From a virus (Duplodnaviria > Heunggongvirae > Uroviricota > Caudoviricetes): a stretch of DNA of 6,855 nucleotides. The first letter of the stretch is position 1, and every line of letters begins with the position of its first letter. This document shows, piece by piece, positions 1,411-6,395 of this stretch. Position numbers and translations under genes: made by a program. The stretch is taken from the IMG/VR virus record IMGVR_UViG_2703718868_000001. The stretch is one strand, 5' to 3'. The notes under the pieces are model-generated. The model had not been told where the DNA came from. It ran no database searches and was given only the letters and a program-made list of their open reading frames with translations.

Positions 1411-2028
1411 ATAGCAAAACTGGCAACCCAGGGCGAATGGGTCGCATTCATTTCGCCGGGCACTGATACATATGCGGTGCATACGCCGGGGGATGAACGT
1501 TGCGGAGACATTATCAAATGGCCTGGCTTTGATGACCAGAAAAATGCAGAGAACAACGCAGAATTTATTGCAGCTTTCAACCCTGAAGTAGTACAGGCAC
1601 TGCTGGATGAACGGGAAGCCCAAAGCAAACGTATTGCAGAGCTGGAAGCTAATCTTGTGGCGCTGGCGGCGGAGAATGCACTTGCTCGTAAAGCAGTTCA
1701 GGCATTCTGCGATGTTGTTGGCGACAACACCGAGGTTATCTGCGAGGAGGTTGGGAGAGATGGCGTTCTGGTTATTTTGGAGGCCATGAAGGCAACAGGA
1801 AATATGCCAGCCACCGATGCTTTCCTGTCTGAAGTGCGGGCGCTGGGGGTGGATGCTGCTATAGAAGCTGCAAAAAATCTGGTGGCCCAAGAATATGAGT
1901 ATAAGGATTTCAAAGCGGCGCAGAGTGATTGCTGTATGCACCCTGGTTCAGACCTGATAGGGAAGGTTGAAATGACTGAGTGGTTAGTTGACTTTGCTGC
2001 CCAGCTTCGCAAAGGAGTTCAGTCATGA
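1378..2028 (+). CDS. Ead/Ea22-like family protein (long paralog)
   Basis: GTG at 1378 in frame with ORF 1351-2028, preceded by AGGAGG 1366-1371. N-terminus VRKINYQTLREIAKLATQGEW resembles the conserved N-terminal motif of lambdoid Ead/Ea22-like proteins (from memory); coiled-coil-like middle (EAQSKRIAELEANLVALAAENALARK). Stop TGA 2026-2028. Confidence 0.7.
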   Translation: MRKINYQTLREIAKLATQGEWVAFISPGTDTYAVHTPGDERCGDIIKWPGFDDQKNAENNAEFIAAFNPEVVQALLDEREAQSKRIAELEANLVALAAENALARKAVQAFCDVVGDNTEVICEEVGRDGVLVILEAMKATGNMPATDAFLSEVRALGVDAAIEAAKNLVAQEYEYKDFKAAQSDCCMHPGSDLIGKVEMTEWLVDFAAQLRKGVQS

Positions 2029-2354
2029 GAGCTTCAATTAGTTATGTCGACGATTGCCACCTAAGCGTGCGTGTTGATGAAATTGTGTCATCCGTGCCAA
2101 CTTTTCCGACAAAAAATGCAGCCGTTAATGCAGGCGCGCCATTCGGATGGAGGACGGCAGTTCGTATTGAGCGTCGATTCGAAAACGTTTGGGTGGTAGG
2201 TAAGAAATGCTTCCAAAGCGATCGCTCTGCGGGGCTTAATTTTGAAGCATATCGATTCCCGTTCCTCCGATGGGAGAAAGAGGGCGGGATTACAAAATGC
2301 CCGATTCTTTCCGTGCGCAGATTCAAGCAGGAGGCAACCAGTGAGCAAGATTGA
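2025..2354 (+). CDS. hypothetical protein (109 aa), translationally coupled
   Basis: ATG at 2025 overlaps the upstream stop (ATGA); AAGGAG at 2012-2017 with 7-nt spacer. Several rare codons (AGA, AGG, CGA, CTA). No recognisable motif; the 3' end overlaps the next gene's RBS/start by 14 nt. Confidence 0.5.
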   Translation: MRASISYVDDCHLSVRVDEIVSSVPTFPTKNAAVNAGAPFGWRTAVRIERRFENVWVVGKKCFQSDRSAGLNFEAYRFPFLRWEKEGGITKCPILSVRRFKQEATSEQD

Positions 2355-2373
2355 CTATCAGGCATTGCGTGAG
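2328..2373 (+). repeat. copy 2 of the duplicated RBS + start + N-terminal coding module
   Basis: See copy 1; 2328-2345 is identical to 1365-1382 and holds the SD and GTG start of the second Ea22-like gene. Confidence 0.8.
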
Positions 2374-2685
2374 GCAGCACAAAACTATCGGTCGATGCTG
2401 GCGTGGTATCAGGAGAAACCAGACAGTCCAAACGCTGAGCAGGATTGTGATGCAGCTTTGGCTGCGTTTAAGCGTGAAATCCGTCATCGTGAAGTGGATA
2501 TTATCGCTGATTTGCTGGATGAACTGGAGGAAGCAAAACAGCGTATCGACGAGCAGGAGTCCCGCATAGTGAAGTTACCAGAACCATTCAAGCTGGCTAA
2601 ATCATCAAGTGGATTAACGTACTACTACGCTGATGAGGTCAATGCCGCACTGACTGCTGCTGGTATTCGCATAGAAGGAGAGTGA
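2341..2685 (+). CDS. Ead/Ea22-like family protein (short paralog, N-terminal-domain type)
   Basis: GTG at 2341 preceded by AGGAGG 2329-2334; N-terminus VSKIDYQALREAAQNY parallels the 1378 gene (KINYQTLREIAK). Coiled-coil segment DLLDELEEAKQRIDEQESRIV. Stop TGA 2683-2685. Confidence 0.65.
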   Translation: MSKIDYQALREAAQNYRSMLAWYQEKPDSPNAEQDCDAALAAFKREIRHREVDIIADLLDELEEAKQRIDEQESRIVKLPEPFKLAKSSSGLTYYYADEVNAALTAAGIRIEGE

Positions 2686-3390: not shown

Positions 3391-3470
3391 GCTGGCCTGA
3401 GGCCTTCTCAAATGTTGGTATTGCAATGGCGGTAGCATTGGTTGTGTATTCGATTTGCCGCTGGGGATAA
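3387..3470 (+). CDS. 27-aa hydrophobic micro-protein (MSWPEAFSNVGIAMAVALVVYSICRWG), putative single-pass membrane peptide
   Basis: ATG at 3387 overlaps the DUF551 stop (ATGA) with AAGGAGG at 3373-3379 (7-nt spacer); stop TAA 3468-3470 sits just before the intrinsic terminator. Too short for the ORF track; the call rests on RBS quality, coupling and a ~20-residue hydrophobic core. Confidence 0.45.
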   Translation: MSWPEAFSNVGIAMAVALVVYSICRWG

Positions 3471-3471
3471 C

Positions 3472-3502
3472 AAAAACCCCGGATTGATGGTCCGGGGTTT
3501 TT
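3472..3502. terminator. rho-independent terminator, probably bidirectional
   Basis: Perfect 7-bp stem CCCCGGA (3477-3483) / TCCGGGG (3491-3497), 7-nt loop, A5 run upstream (3472-3476) and T5 run downstream (3498-3502). Confidence 0.75.
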
Positions 3503-3660
3503 GAAGGAAACAAAACAGAAACAACAATTGCTGTTACCTGTTGTTACCATGGCAAGTAAACGTATCTCAGGCGAGCGCATTGCGCCGTTCTGACGCACAT
3601 AAGGTAGAGTAGATTGCAGAAGCTGGCAATAAAAAGTTGGTGGAAAGTCTGATGCAGATG

Positions 3661-3686
3661 CGAAAAGATAGCCCCGAAAACGGGGC
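3661..3686 (-). terminator. putative intrinsic terminator for the minus-strand gene
   Basis: Hairpin GCCCCG-AAAA-CGGGGC at 3671-3686 lies 5 nt downstream (minus sense) of the 3692-3694 stop and is followed on the minus strand by UAUCUUUUCG. Confidence 0.55.
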
Positions 3687-3691
3687 CGGAT

Positions 3692-3973
3692 TTACTGAGC
3701 ACCAATAATCCTGAAGATGTAATCCTTGAAGATGAGAGCCAGAGCGGCAGCAACAATAAACCACTGGAGTCGATCAAACTTGGTTTCCAGCTTGTCCAGG
3801 CGCTTATCAACCGATATTAGCTGGTTTTGCAAAGAATTAAAGCGACCATCAATCTCACGACGCAGGTTATCAACGCTTTCCTGTGTTGCCAGGTGTTGCA
3901 TGTTCTGCTGGCGATGGAGTAAAGCATTCAACACATCACTGGTGCTGAACTCAATTTTTTTGTCATCACTCAT
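3692..3973 (-). CDS. 93-aa coiled-coil protein with C-terminal transmembrane anchor (XhlA-like architecture; function unknown)
   Basis: ATG on the minus strand (plus 3971-3973) preceded by AGGAGG (complement of 3979-3984, 5-nt spacer); stop TAA (3692-3694). Product has heptad-like region NLRREIDGRFNSLQNQLISVDKRLDKLETKFDRL then hydrophobic tail WFIVAAALALIFKDYIFRIIG. It is the only convincing minus-strand gene in the window and has its own terminator. Confidence 0.7.
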   Translation of the reverse strand: MSDDKKIEFSTSDVLNALLHRQQNMQHLATQESVDNLRREIDGRFNSLQNQLISVDKRLDKLETKFDRLQWFIVAAALALIFKDYIFRIIGAQ

Positions 3974-4023
3974 GTTGGCCTCCTGTATGGGGAATCGTGG
4001 TACAGGAAAAACCTGTTAAGTAA

Positions 4024-4052
4024 ATAGTAAAGTTAATCGCTTCACTCATCAA
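4024..4052 (-). promoter_or_regulatory. candidate sigma70 promoter for the minus-strand gene (TTGATG-17-TACTAT)
   Basis: On the minus strand, -35 TTGATG (plus 4047-4052) and -10 TACTAT (plus 4024-4029) with a 17-nt spacer, ~50 nt upstream of the ATG. Hexamer matching by eye only. Confidence 0.3.
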
Positions 4053-4058
4053 GTGAGT
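4044..4058. promoter_or_regulatory. inverted repeat ACTCA-tcaag-TGAGT, possible operator
   Basis: 5-bp perfect inverted repeat with a 5-nt spacer (extendable with mismatches), overlapping the candidate -35 of the minus-strand promoter and 15-29 bp upstream of the candidate plus-strand -35. Confidence 0.3.
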
Positions 4059-4072
4059 AAGCACAGAAGCGG

Positions 4073-4102
4073 TTGACGACAACAGAAATCAGAGACAATA
4101 TT
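4073..4102 (+). promoter_or_regulatory. candidate sigma70 promoter for the downstream plus-strand operon (TTGACG-18-AATATT)
   Basis: -35 TTGACG at 4073-4078 and -10 AATATT at 4097-4102; needed in principle because the upstream operon ends at the 3472-3502 terminator. Hexamer matching by eye only. Confidence 0.3.
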
Positions 4103-4154
4103 GCCGCACGCCAGCCTGAACAACTGGCACCTGCTGCGTCAGCAGAGAAAACTG

Positions 4155-4433
4155 ATGGCGCACGATACCAGATTTTACAATTCGGATAACTCTGCCGCCC
4201 CTGCCAGCAGACACGGGCGGCGTTCTCATGCATTCAAATCTGACTGGTTCCGGCATGACCCATGCACTGAAGAACAGGCCGAATGGCTGATTCAGTGTTA
4301 CCGCAGACGTGGTTACGAGTTTCAGAAAGCTCTCAGTCTTGACCGTCGCCACTGGATAATCTCTGTCAGGCTACCTTATTCCGAACGCCCACCGCGTCCG
4401 TCCCGAACATTCCAGCAGCGCATCTGGAGGTAA
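4155..4433 (+). CDS. small basic hypothetical protein (92 aa); positional equivalent of rem upstream of ydfU in the K-12 Qin prophage
   Basis: ORF-track frame 4101-4433 begins with TTG at 4101 inside the putative promoter; first ATG at 4155 with weak SD GAGAAA. Arg/His-rich, several rare codons. Stop TAA 4431-4433, 1 nt before the next gene. Identity with Rem not verified. Confidence 0.45.
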   Translation: MAHDTRFYNSDNSAAPASRHGRRSHAFKSDWFRHDPCTEEQAEWLIQCYRRRGYEFQKALSLDRRHWIISVRLPYSERPPRPSRTFQQRIWR

Positions 4434-4434
4434 C

Positions 4435-5484
4435 GTGCGGGTATTACTTCGACCTGTTCTGGTACCGGAACTCGGGATGGTGCTCCTAAAGCCGGGCCGT
4501 GAATCAATGTCAGCATTCCATAACGGCAGAATATTGGTGGAACCGGAACCGAAAAACATGCGCGGTCTGCCGTCCGGAGTCGTTCCTGCCGTTCGACAGC
4601 CGCTGGCAGAGGATAAAACATTACTGCCATTTTTCAGCAACGAACGGGTGATTCGTGCTGCGGGTGGCGCTGGTGCACTGTCTGACTGGTTATTACGTCA
4701 CGTGAAATCCTGCCAGTGGTCACATGGCGATTATCATCACAGCGAAACTGTCATACATCGTTACGGTTCCGGCGCGATGGTGTTGTGCTGGCACTGCGAC
4801 AACCAGCTGCGCGACCAGACATCAGAATCACTCGATCAACTTGCTCAGCAGAATCTGGTTGCCTGGATGACTGACGTTATCCGTCACGCAATAAGCGGCA
4901 TGCAGGAGAGGGAGTTATCGCTGGCCGAATTATCCTGGTGGGCGGCCTGCAATCAGGTGGTGGATGCACTACCTGAGGCAGTAGCGCGTCGTTCGCTGGG
5001 ATTACCGGCGGAAAAAATCCGCTCCGTATACCGTGAGAGTGACATCGTACCGGGAGAACAGACAGCCATCAGCATACTGAAGCAGCGCACAAAAAATATT
5101 GCGCTGCCACTTCACGTCCACCAGCAACAAAATCCACCACAGAAAAAAACGGTTGTCAGTATCGCCGTTGATCCGGAGTCTCCTGAATCGTTCATGAGGC
5201 GGCCTAAACGTCGCCGTTGGGTTAATGAGAAATACACGCGCTGGGTAAAGACACAGCCGTGTGCGTGTTGTGGTAAGCCTGCTGACGATCCGCATCACCT
5301 GATTGGTCATGGTCAGGGGGGAATGGGGACAAAGGCCCACGATATTTTCACGCTACCGTTGTGCCGGGAGCACCACAACGAACTTCATGCAGACCCGCTG
5401 GAGTTTGAGAAAAAGTACGGCTCTCAGATTGAGTTAATTTTTCGTTTTCTTGATCACGCCTTTGCGACTGGCGTGCTCGGGTAA
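4435..5484 (+). CDS. DUF968-family protein with HNH-like Cys/His motifs (YdfU-like)
   Basis: GTG at 4435 with GGAGG at 4426-4430; 349 aa, the length I recall for E. coli K-12 YdfU. C-terminal motif CACCGKPADDPHHLIGHGQGG...LCREHHNELH is the DUF968/HNH-like signature; a second Cys/His cluster (CQWSHGDYHH...CWHCDNQ) lies near residue 95. Confidence 0.8.
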   Translation: MRVLLRPVLVPELGMVLLKPGRESMSAFHNGRILVEPEPKNMRGLPSGVVPAVRQPLAEDKTLLPFFSNERVIRAAGGAGALSDWLLRHVKSCQWSHGDYHHSETVIHRYGSGAMVLCWHCDNQLRDQTSESLDQLAQQNLVAWMTDVIRHAISGMQERELSLAELSWWAACNQVVDALPEAVARRSLGLPAEKIRSVYRESDIVPGEQTAISILKQRTKNIALPLHVHQQQNPPQKKTVVSIAVDPESPESFMRRPKRRRWVNEKYTRWVKTQPCACCGKPADDPHHLIGHGQGGMGTKAHDIFTLPLCREHHNELHADPLEFEKKYGSQIELIFRFLDHAFATGVLG

Positions 5485-5496
5485 AAGAGGTGACTG

Positions 5497-5856
5497 ATGC
5501 TCATAGATTTGGTTTTACCTTACCCGCCGACGGTGAACACTTACTGGCGACGCCGTGGCAGCACATATTTTGTCTCAAAAGCCGGGGAGCGTTATCGCCG
5601 GGCAGTGGCGCTTATTGTTCGCCAGCAGCGACTGAAATTAAGCCTGTCCGGACGGCTGGCAATAAAAATTATTGCAGAACCACCGGATAAGCGCCGCCGT
5701 GACCTGGACAATATTCTGAAAGCGCCGCTGGATGCGCTGACGCATGCGGGAGTGCTTATTGATGACGAGCAGTTTGATGAAATCAATATTGTACGTGGTC
5801 AGCTTGTTCCTGGTGGTCGGTTGGGTGTGAAGATTTACAAAATTGAGAGTGAGTGA
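5497..5856 (+). CDS. rusA: crossover junction endodeoxyribonuclease RusA (Holliday junction resolvase)
   Basis: ATG at 5497 with AAGAGG 5485-5490. Product aligns by eye with E. coli RusA: LPYPPTVNTYWR vs LPWPPSNNRYYR; PDKRRRDLDNILKAPLDALTHAG vs [30 protein letters not shown] vs KGGRLEL. 119 aa. Confidence 0.9.
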   Translation: MLIDLVLPYPPTVNTYWRRRGSTYFVSKAGERYRRAVALIVRQQRLKLSLSGRLAIKIIAEPPDKRRRDLDNILKAPLDALTHAGVLIDDEQFDEINIVRGQLVPGGRLGVKIYKIESE

Positions 5857-5864
5857 GCGTAAAT

Positions 5865-6395
5865 ATGATATATCCGGAAATTACAGGCAAAAGCGGCGAA
5901 CATTTACGCCTGAACACGCTGGAAGCAGTCTGGATCCAGGGGAAATTACGGATGTGGGGGCGGTGGTCGTATATCGGTGGGGGTAAATCCGGAAATATGT
6001 TTAACCGGTTACTGGTTTCGAAAAAGCTGACGAAAACAGCAGTTAATGAGGTTTTACGCAGAATGAAGAAATCCGGGCTGGATAAACCGGAACTTGAGGC
6101 ATTTTTTCGGGATATGACCAGAGGGAAGCAGAAGAGCTGGTTGTCACATTGTACAGACACAGAGGCGTTGATTATTGATCGCGTTATCAGTGAGGTGCTT
6201 GGGGAATATCCCGGGCTAATCAATATTCTCCGGCAAAGGTACGAAGGACGGGGAATGAGTAAGAGAAAAATGGCAGAATGTTTAAATCGTACTCACCCGG
6301 AATGGTGTTTCAGCACATGTGAGAAACGTATTGCAGGTTGGTTAGCCGTGGCTGAACACATGCTTTATGTACCTATGCACGATTCATTTCGATAA
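5865..6395 (+). CDS. late-gene antiterminator Q, QuuD (DLP12)-type, with an N-terminal extension
   Basis: Immediately downstream of rusA (the canonical nin-region position) and upstream of a strong intrinsic terminator. Several segments align by eye with my recollection of QuuD: LRMWGRWSY vs LERWGAWAA; CTDTEALII vs CDDDAMII; RIAGWLAVAEHML vs KAEGIIEGMLMAL. Start at ATG 5865; GTG 5853 overlapping the rusA stop is an alternative. Stop TAA 6393-6395. Confidence 0.65.
   Translation: MIYPEITGKSGEHLRLNTLEAVWIQGKLRMWGRWSYIGGGKSGNMFNRLLVSKKLTKTAVNEVLRRMKKSGLDKPELEAFFRDMTRGKQKSWLSHCTDTEALIIDRVISEVLGEYPGLINILRQRYEGRGMSKRKMAECLNRTHPEWCFSTCEKRIAGWLAVAEHMLYVPMHDSFR

Follow-up and report, generated by a model that had tools for sequence, protein, structure and literature searches.

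The virus record IMGVR_UViG_2703718868_000001 (Caudoviricetes), a stretch of 6,855 nucleotides that is called the window throughout, carries two neighbouring genes that encode a small basic protein and a YdfU-type DUF968 protein. The best reading of the pair, to which a probability of about 0.55 is given, is that the DUF968 protein is an HNH endonuclease or nickase for phage recombination or replication and that the small protein is an accessory loosely partnered with it. What the analysis shows concerns the structure and synteny of the genes, the families to which they belong, their conservation and the similarity of their folds, and from this we infer the nuclease activity, its substrate, a dependence on RecA and what the small protein does. 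The call of open reading frames (ORFs) agrees exactly with the coordinates, lengths and one-base spacing that a first-pass annotation, made from the letters of the DNA, had given for the two genes:

4155..4433, plus strand: small basic protein of 92 residues; 'hypothetical protein' in RefSeq, PHROG 1212
4435..5484, plus strand: YdfU-type DUF968 protein of 349 residues with a GTG start and a strong Shine-Dalgarno (SD) sequence; 'DUF968 domain-containing protein' in RefSeq

The DUF968 protein and its Cys/His sites

The assignment of the larger protein to DUF968, already made in the first-pass annotation, is borne out by Pfam, whose DUF968 profile (PF06147) matches residues 160-346 over all of its 171 positions (E 2e-77; 259.4 bits vs a cut-off of 27.8). 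Among the PHROG families, phrog_96 ('HNH endonuclease') spans the whole protein (E 5e-173) and phrog_11007 spans residues 2-135; the Pfam family HNHc_6 gives a weak match. Neither of the two proteins matched an NCBIfam family, and a full-length sequence search of the PDB returned insignificant matches only (YbcO, E 1.3; McrA, E 1.4). For the structure, a naturally occurring protein in which the two are fused in frame (P0146) was modelled from an unpaired alignment of 105 sequences, and the model was judged by the predicted local distance difference test (pLDDT) and the predicted template modelling score (pTM). In DUF968 numbering, residues 1-56 of this model form a beta-hairpin of moderate confidence, and the remainder is organised as follows:

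4615..5067, plus strand: N-terminal/central domain, residues 61-211, pLDDT 94-97
4711..4815, plus strand: second Cys/His cluster, residues 93-127, C-Q-x5-Y-H-H-x-E ... C-W-H-C-[DE]-N-x-L-R
5068..5208, plus strand: linker predicted to be disordered, residues 212-258, Gln/Pro-rich then basic (...RRPKRRRW...), pLDDT below 50-60, of varying length
5209..5481, plus strand: HNH (beta-beta-alpha-metal) domain, residues 259-349, confident in the model, with C276, C279, C310 and H313 as predicted zinc ligands

The C-terminal motif reads C276-x2-C279 ... H287 H288 ... D303 ... C310-R-E-H313-H314-N-E-L-H318, in which H288, D303, H314 and H318 are the candidate catalytic residues. In a set of 65 homologues that spans many enterobacterial genera and reaches down to about 45% identity, the positions of the motif and D284 are invariant with the sole exception of position 313, where 33 sequences have Cys and 32 have His. 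The domain has the beta-hairpin and alpha-helix of a His-Me finger, with the conserved His at the first strand, and the residues expected as metal ligands or structural supports of such a finger, H314 and H318 in the helix and D303 between the strands, are all invariant. The arrangement CxxC ... CxxC/H (C276, C279, C310 and position 313) is the signature of the zinc-finger HNH subclass. Because these residues are invariant in the 65 homologues, the motif is best described as a complete, selected HNH site rather than a bare zinc ribbon. Judged by its sequence, it is a complete zinc-stabilised HNH (beta-beta-alpha-metal) site; the HNH-like motif of the first-pass annotation stands, and the caveat entered there, that the Cys and His residues might form nothing more than a structural zinc ribbon, falls away for the C-terminal motif.

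A link to characterised enzymes is provided by Gp16 of Staphylococcus phage PhiNM1 (ABF73046), which scores 389 bits with HNHc_6 and a marginal 29 bits with DUF968. Residues 273-330 of the window protein are 41% identical to the HNH core of Gp16, and hhalign pairs the two with a probability of 96% (E 2e-9). In the alignment, C148, H157, C181, H184, H185 and H189 of Gp16, each of which has been mutated in that protein, correspond to C279, H288, C310, H313, H314 and H318 of the window protein; the numbering of Gp16 residues was checked and agrees with the published one (PMC12817073). In fold, the model comes closest to the Ref protein of phage P1 (PDB 3plw), and the HNH core is homologous to or superposable on that of Ref and Gp16.

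The second Cys/His cluster (C93 ... H101 H102 ... C118-W-H-C121-D-N123) had been described as degenerate. The cluster is real, but it is not decaying, being as strictly conserved as the HNH site: C93, Q94, Y100, H101, E104, C118, C121 and N123 are invariant in the 65 sequences, and H102, W119, H120, L125 and R126 are nearly so. In the model it folds as a beta-hairpin and a helix (beta-beta-alpha, residues 105-125), with C93, H101, C118 and C121 placed as in a treble-clef zinc site. Pfam and PDB sequence searches with residues 61-160 found no relatives, and the N-terminal domain is a strictly conserved domain without known relatives. A NinB/Orf-like identity of this domain was considered and rejected, as hhalign of the family profile against NinB gave a probability of 0.3% and no Pfam NinB match was found.

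The cluster can be placed in register with the HNH finger, so that C93 corresponds to C279, the HH pair to the HH pair, C118-x2-C121 to C310-x2-H313, and N123 to N315. An hhalign comparison of the N- and C-terminal domains is weak (E 0.05, probability 1%), with the register as expected by eye, and BLASTP of the second cluster against Gp16 gives the same register at an insignificant E of 1.2. Since the register is consistent but the statistics are weak, the origin of the second cluster as a diverged duplicate of the HNH finger is plausible but unproven. The cluster may even be a second, divergent His-Me active site, in which case the YdfU-type proteins would be two-headed nucleases.

Some database entries of the family show peculiarities. 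Four E. coli DUF968 variants (P0121, P0122, P0123 and P0132) have internal tandem duplications of 30-100 residues, for example of the segment RELSLAEL...FMKRP or of the region around CxxC, which are either real or assembly artefacts. DUF968 genes of the enterobacterial type also occur on contigs binned to unrelated taxa, namely in metagenome-assembled genomes of Veillonella parvula (L086, JAGZPX010000007.1), Geobacteraceae (L091) and Caulobacter segnis (L096), and are most likely contamination from metagenome binning.

The small gene and its partners

The small protein contains 16 Arg, 2 Lys and 5 His residues vs 10 Asp/Glu. The first-pass annotation had treated its start as ambiguous between TTG and ATG and had allowed that the ORF might not be translated. 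The start is the ATG at 4155 and not the TTG at 4101, because this ATG is kept in K-12 and all relatives and is used by RefSeq, and because homology between phages begins only at about 4105. In 57 distinct homologous loci, codon positions 1, 2 and 3 of the small ORF vary by 0.043, 0.045 and 0.129, respectively, and those of the last 26 codons by 0.009, 0.011 and 0.102, which argues that the tail is conserved as protein and not as RNA. The stop codon TAA (4431-4433) is followed by a single base, C4434, and then by the DUF968 GTG at 4435, whose SD sequence, GGAGG, lies at 4426-4430. The codon-type substitutions and the coupling-type spacing support the small basic protein as a product of a real gene; as far as sequence can tell, the small ORF is a genuine, selected gene placed for translational coupling.

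The opposite view, that these 280 bases are a plain untranslated leader, is implied by the RefSeq annotation of MG1655 (NC_000913.3), in which no coding sequence lies between rem and ydfU, and could be argued from the weak SD sequence, the paired AUG and the Rho control of the locus (PMC9160355). It is hardly tenable, given that the codon periodicity of substitutions is seen in the frame of the small ORF only, and that relatives of 92, 90, 89 and 88 residues differ in length without loss of the reading frame. In the K-12 prophage Qin, an intact homologue of 92 codons with 76% amino acid identity lies between rem and ydfU (NC_000913.3, about 1644306..1644584, minus strand; 2307..2585, minus strand, in locus L003), and homologues of 66-68 residues start at their own ATG in Klebsiella, Citrobacter, Kluyvera and Enterobacter.

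Residues 27-92 match PHROG 1212 from position 1 to 66 of its 66 positions (E 4e-36). All members of this PHROG are without an assigned function, and the Escherichia version adds a variable N-terminal extension of 24-26 residues to the 66-residue profile. The family is narrow, with 73 clusters at 50% identity in an exhaustive HMMER search of 1.84 billion representatives, most of which are 66-68-residue proteins that match residues 27-92. Three parts of the protein can be told apart: residues 1-26 are the variable, disordered and Escherichia-specific extension, residues 28-75 are predicted by AlphaFold as a beta-alpha-beta-beta core with a pLDDT above 90, and residues 76-92 form a nearly invariant Pro/Arg-rich tail that ends in QQRIWR, with an invariant terminal Trp. 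Fold searches returned generic matches only, and the small protein is unmatched in Pfam, NCBIfam and PADLOC.

The end of the tail resembles a beta-clamp-binding motif, Qxx[LIM][FW]. This candidate was set aside, as the Gln is not conserved in distant members. GenBank record ON470619 and its sister records label the small ORF 'toxin to Rem' (1551..1829 of locus L156), a name for which no literature basis was found. Entries in which the small ORF and DUF968 are fused, in frame or through a +1 shift, are rare (P0146, of 438 residues, P0110 and P0158), and the open DUF968 frame of some relatives reaches about 13-30 codons upstream of the GTG, where it overlaps the tail of the small ORF. A programmed +1 frameshift joining the two ORFs was considered and dropped, because the variability of the third codon position persists in the overlap and because the DUF968 start has a strong SD sequence and a conserved N-terminus.

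The first-pass annotation had proposed a two-gene module and had asked whether the two genes always co-occur. Seen from the small gene, in a sample of 80 IMG/VR loci, the adjacency is fixed: of the 76 Escherichia loci that extend past the small ORF, 75 have the start of DUF968 at an identical +5 position, and one, a rearranged remnant, does not. Seen from DUF968, in 38 loci with one genome per species, it is not. The small gene lies somewhere upstream in 25 of the 38. It abuts DUF968 in 11, all from Escherichia/Shigella (including two pseudogenised copies) or from Klebsiella, in which the stop of the small gene and the start of DUF968 overlap by one base, and it is separated from DUF968 by an inserted rusA in 14 (Citrobacter, Kluyvera, Enterobacter, Phytobacter, Leclercia and others). 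The remaining 13 loci have no small gene upstream and carry a KilA-N/antirepressor-type gene before DUF968. A second DUF968 subtype of Escherichia/Shigella (L095 and L118; 46-55% identical) is likewise without the small gene.

The partners of the small family vary as well. From its side, adjacency to DUF968 is restricted to Escherichia/Shigella and Klebsiella; in other genera the gene is found before RusA, and distant members, located by scans of single proteins, precede NinG, NinX, a calcineurin-like metallophosphatase, YbcO with RusA, or an RNase_T exonuclease. The pairing is thus lineage-specific, and the obligatory co-occurrence or adjacency of a toxin-antitoxin or nuclease-immunity module was not found. 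Of the proposed module, the fixed adjacency holds in the phages sampled from the small-gene side, while its generality does not, given the DUF968 loci that lack the small gene and the other partners elsewhere. The varied downstream genes and the DUF968 loci without a small gene point to a nin-region accessory with promiscuous neighbours rather than a dedicated subunit.

A cognate inhibitor that holds the HNH nuclease inactive, in the manner of an antitoxin or immunity protein, would explain the one-base gap, the coupling placement and the invariant spacing in Escherichia phages. It would also suit the toxicity of the relative Gp16 on overexpression (PMC12817073) and the position of ydfU behind a strong Rho terminator, which is said to silence toxic prophage genes (PMC9160355); the 'toxin to Rem' label points the same way, as an annotation to which no paper lends support. 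Such an inhibitor is nevertheless distinctly unlikely, in view of the 13 DUF968 loci that lack the gene, the 14 in which rusA intervenes, and the small-family members that stand before NinG, NinX, the metallophosphatase or the RNase_T exonuclease. No toxin-antitoxin family was matched, and the fusion model (pTM 0.49) has no confident interface signal, with a lower pLDDT for the small domain than when it is modelled alone. The role in phage-phage conflict that the first-pass annotation had considered finds nothing in its support, as PADLOC has no family at E <= 0.01 for either protein.

Gene order and expression signals

The window represents the early-right/nin region of a lambdoid E. coli prophage, and the part studied here is a distal nin-region operon of the lambdoid, Shiga toxin (Stx)-phage-like type. 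The RefSeq gene order is the one called here from ORFs and Pfam matches. Besides the pair itself, it comprises the following genes:

upstream part of the window: ead/Ea22-like and DUF551 genes (RefSeq)
3692..3973, minus strand: gene for a protein of 93 residues (RefSeq)
5497..5856, plus strand: RusA Holliday-junction resolvase (Pfam RusA, E 3e-16), with conserved synteny
5853..6395, plus strand: DUF1133/Q-like antiterminator (DUF1133, E 1e-110; Phage_antitermQ, E 1e-8)

The DUF968 stop and the rusA start are separated by 12 bases, and in the ORF call the Q-like frame, with a GTG at 5853, overlaps the 3' end of rusA by 4 bases; RefSeq starts the Q-like gene (186 residues) at an ATG 9 bases past the rusA stop, so that this overlap is absent. 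The spacing of the small gene, DUF968, rusA and Q fits a single operon whose genes are translationally linked. The chromosome of E. coli 04-00955 matches bases 3900-5600 with 99.8% identity; of 5,426 complete E. coli genomes, 4,551 have matches to parts of this segment, and in 3,239 at least 80% of it is covered. The order DUF968-RusA-Q is conserved across related loci, and the block is an ordinary, widely conserved set of small protein, YdfU/DUF968, RusA and Q of E. coli lambdoid prophages. A selfish, homing-type HNH gene, or a weapon against host defences or other phages, would hardly be expected in this stable syntenic slot between replication genes and RusA/Q in many genera, nor in most E. 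coli genomes. Both are very unlikely, also because PADLOC gives no match, because the gene is not set in an intron or intein, and because the nearest relatives in sequence and fold are nucleases of phage recombination and replication.

The signals recognised ahead of and within the pair are the following:

4073..4102, plus strand: weak sigma-70-like match TTGACG-18-AATATT, 9/12 positions, with an alternative -10 element GACAAT at 4094-4099
4105..4154, plus strand: conserved 5' leader of the small ORF; mosaic boundary at which homology between phages begins
4135..4162, plus strand: predicted RNA hairpin (7 + 3 bp) in which the start codon (4155-4157) of the small ORF is paired
4330..4427, plus strand: C-rich, G-poor stretch resembling a Rho utilisation (rut) site, with 38% C, 19% G and a C/G ratio of 2.0, at the 3' end of the small ORF

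A promoter of its own had been suggested for the pair. The sigma-70-like match lies in the divergent intergenic region beside the minus-strand gene, but it is no better than chance, as a scan of the region yields 2 such sites vs 1.8 expected, no more than in shuffled sequence, and its -35 element lies in DNA that varies between phages. The -10-like sequence (T/G)ACAAT recurs in hok-type, rem-type and ParD/RelE-type upstream contexts, the last of which is shared with the window, and two further contexts have TATACT or nothing comparable at this position. At 4105, column conservation rises from about 0.6-0.75 to 0.85-0.95. In most related IMG/VR loci (for example L015), the 3' end of a hok-type locus directly precedes the small ORF, about 60-100 bases upstream. 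This hok-type context contains an intrinsic terminator, ACCCGCTTCGGCGGGTTTTGTTTTTT, followed by TTTACAAT; the window is without this terminator.

The hairpin over the start codon holds the weak SD sequence AGAAAA in its loop and is predicted both in the window and in K-12 Qin (z = -3.3 in K-12). Its pairing is kept in 93% of cells compared with 14-38% in slid controls, with few independent lineages behind this figure, and three of the pairs show compensatory changes that separate the window type from the K-12 type. No other stretches of the window are as rich in C and poor in G as the rut-like stretch and bases 5061..5160, the latter encoding the Gln/Pro-rich linker of DUF968; over the window, C/G has a median of 0.75 and a 95th percentile of 1.24. 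For the prophage Qin of K-12, a published study describes a strong terminator that depends on Rho, located 'upstream of ydfU' but not placed exactly, and finds that rho mutations raise the expression of ydfU and not that of rem (PMC9160355). We infer a link between the rut-like stretch at 4330..4427 and this terminator.

The AUG-pairing hairpin with its compensatory changes, the weak SD sequence, the rut-like end and the reported Rho terminator, together with the response of ydfU to rho mutations, make it conceivable that the small ORF acts mainly in cis, as a leader whose hairpin-gated translation sets the loading of Rho before DUF968, rusA and Q. We consider this unlikely: the amino acids are under strong purifying selection, most evident in the tail, and the fold is modelled with confidence, which together argue that the protein itself matters. 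Moreover, the C-richness follows from Pro, Arg and Ser codons, the hairpin over the AUG is not consistent in other genera, and the reported terminator is not exactly placed. Given the strong selection on the protein, such a gate could not be the sole role of the small ORF; that it is more than a protein gene and also serves as a translational gate on late-gene expression is an equally unlikely proposal. If it were true, a checkpoint of Rho and translation would stand ahead of Q in Stx-type prophages, in agreement with the K-12 Rho terminator.

The minus-strand product of 93 residues (WFIVAAALALIFKDYIFRIIGAQ) has a coiled-coil-like N-terminal part and a C-terminal hydrophobic helix, and a terminator-like hairpin (3687..3670, minus strand) follows the gene. 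It matched no Pfam, PHROG or PADLOC family, and its NCBIfam matches are sub-threshold. In related prophages, the same slot is occupied by hok/sok, by relBE with hokD and rem, or by a ParD/RelE-ParE pair, which marks it as a hot spot for morons or toxin-antitoxin loci; the 93-residue protein may act in exclusion or as a small membrane toxin. Rfam searches gave sub-threshold chance matches only, none of them within 4155-5484. Weak matches at 3392..3542, between DUF551 and the moron, to MicC (28 bits compared with a gathering threshold of 90), PsrR1 and a Betaproteobacteria toxic small RNA are probably due to chance as well.

Proposed function and known systems

The first-pass annotation had also offered a role in DNA processing, and this is still the best reading, suggested by the HNH core and by the relatives of the protein (PMC5714182; PMC12817073). 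The DUF968 protein is most likely a zinc-stabilised, divalent-metal-dependent beta-beta-alpha-Me (HNH) DNA endonuclease that probably nicks recombination or replication intermediates, and it would serve the recombination-dependent replication of the phage beside the neighbouring RusA resolvase. By analogy, RecA may stimulate it, since the nearest characterised relatives are stimulated by RecA. The N-terminal domain, in which a beta-beta-alpha element accompanies a second zinc site of the CHCC type, would probably recognise the substrate or a partner, or else could act as a second active site. In phages of Escherichia and Klebsiella, the small protein would be translationally coupled to the nuclease. 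Its most likely ligand is nucleic acid or a host factor that several nin-region enzymes share, and this loose partnership is favoured over a dedicated subunit or inhibitor of DUF968.

Several points weigh against this proposal. To our knowledge, there is no experiment on any YdfU-type protein, and the fusion model, which was assessed through pLDDT and pTM only, gives no sign of an interface between the small protein and DUF968. Neither Ref nor the NinB-like domain of Gp16 is related to the N-terminal 250 residues, and the protein may thus be targeted to its substrate in another way than these enzymes. Gp16 itself is not fully understood as a model enzyme, because mutants of its catalytic His residues relieve the toxicity only in part (PMC12817073).

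A large proportion of E. coli prophages, Stx-converting ones among them, have a YdfU-type DUF968 gene just upstream of Q, and we know of no member of this subtype that has been studied, although it is present in most sequenced E. coli. The residue-by-residue link to Gp16 and P1 Ref turns DUF968 into a testable enzyme hypothesis. New in this analysis are a conserved 92-codon gene that is absent from the K-12 MG1655 annotation, the lineage-specific nature of its pairing with DUF968, and the placement of the second Cys/His cluster in a strictly conserved domain that has no known relatives. As a whole, these findings are minor details that will not surprise phage specialists.

The first-pass annotation had called DUF968 functionally uncharacterised, which holds for the YdfU type but not for the wider family. 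DUF968 and DUF1364/YbcO have been placed in group 7 of the His-Me finger nucleases since 2017, with RusA and Q as adjacent genes and a proposed role in recombination (Jablonska et al. 2017, PMC5714182). The DUF968 proteins of Gram-positive bacteria consist of an Orf/NinB-like domain fused to an HNH domain (PMC4118853), and the relative Gp16 was characterised in 2026 as a RecA-enhanced nickase that is toxic on overexpression and required for phage DNA replication (PMC12817073). Gp16 and the window protein belong to the same HNH subclass, CxxC ... H ... C-R-E-H-H-N-E-x-H, and the gp16 gene lies in the early region of PhiNM1, which also contains RusA about 3 kb further downstream. They differ in that the N-terminal domain of Gp16 is NinB/Orf-like, whereas the 250-residue N-terminal region of the window protein is unrelated to it and has a zinc cluster of its own. 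The fold relative, P1 Ref, is an HNH endonuclease that depends on RecA (PDB 3plw; PMC3973344, PMC4330346).

Two further nucleases of lambdoid phages are comparable in part. YbcO of DLP12 and phage 82 (DUF1364, PDB 3g27) is a single domain of 96 residues, compared with the 349 residues of the window protein, which has no match to Pfam YbcO at E <= 0.01 and shows distant profile and fold similarity only. NinG (Rap) of lambda, a structure-specific endonuclease, occupies the analogous nin-region slot before Q but belongs to a different family: Pfam NinG, which recognises the true NinG proteins of related loci at E 1e-50 to 1e-74, leaves the window protein unmatched.

The closest counterpart is YdfU of the K-12 prophage Qin (b1560), which is 85% identical over its full length and has the same 349-residue architecture. 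It, too, is preceded by a small ORF, which is unannotated there, and followed by a Q-type antiterminator. Unlike the window, Qin has lost the rusA gene that would separate ydfU from Q, and rem-hokD-relBE lies upstream where the window has the 93-residue minus-strand gene.

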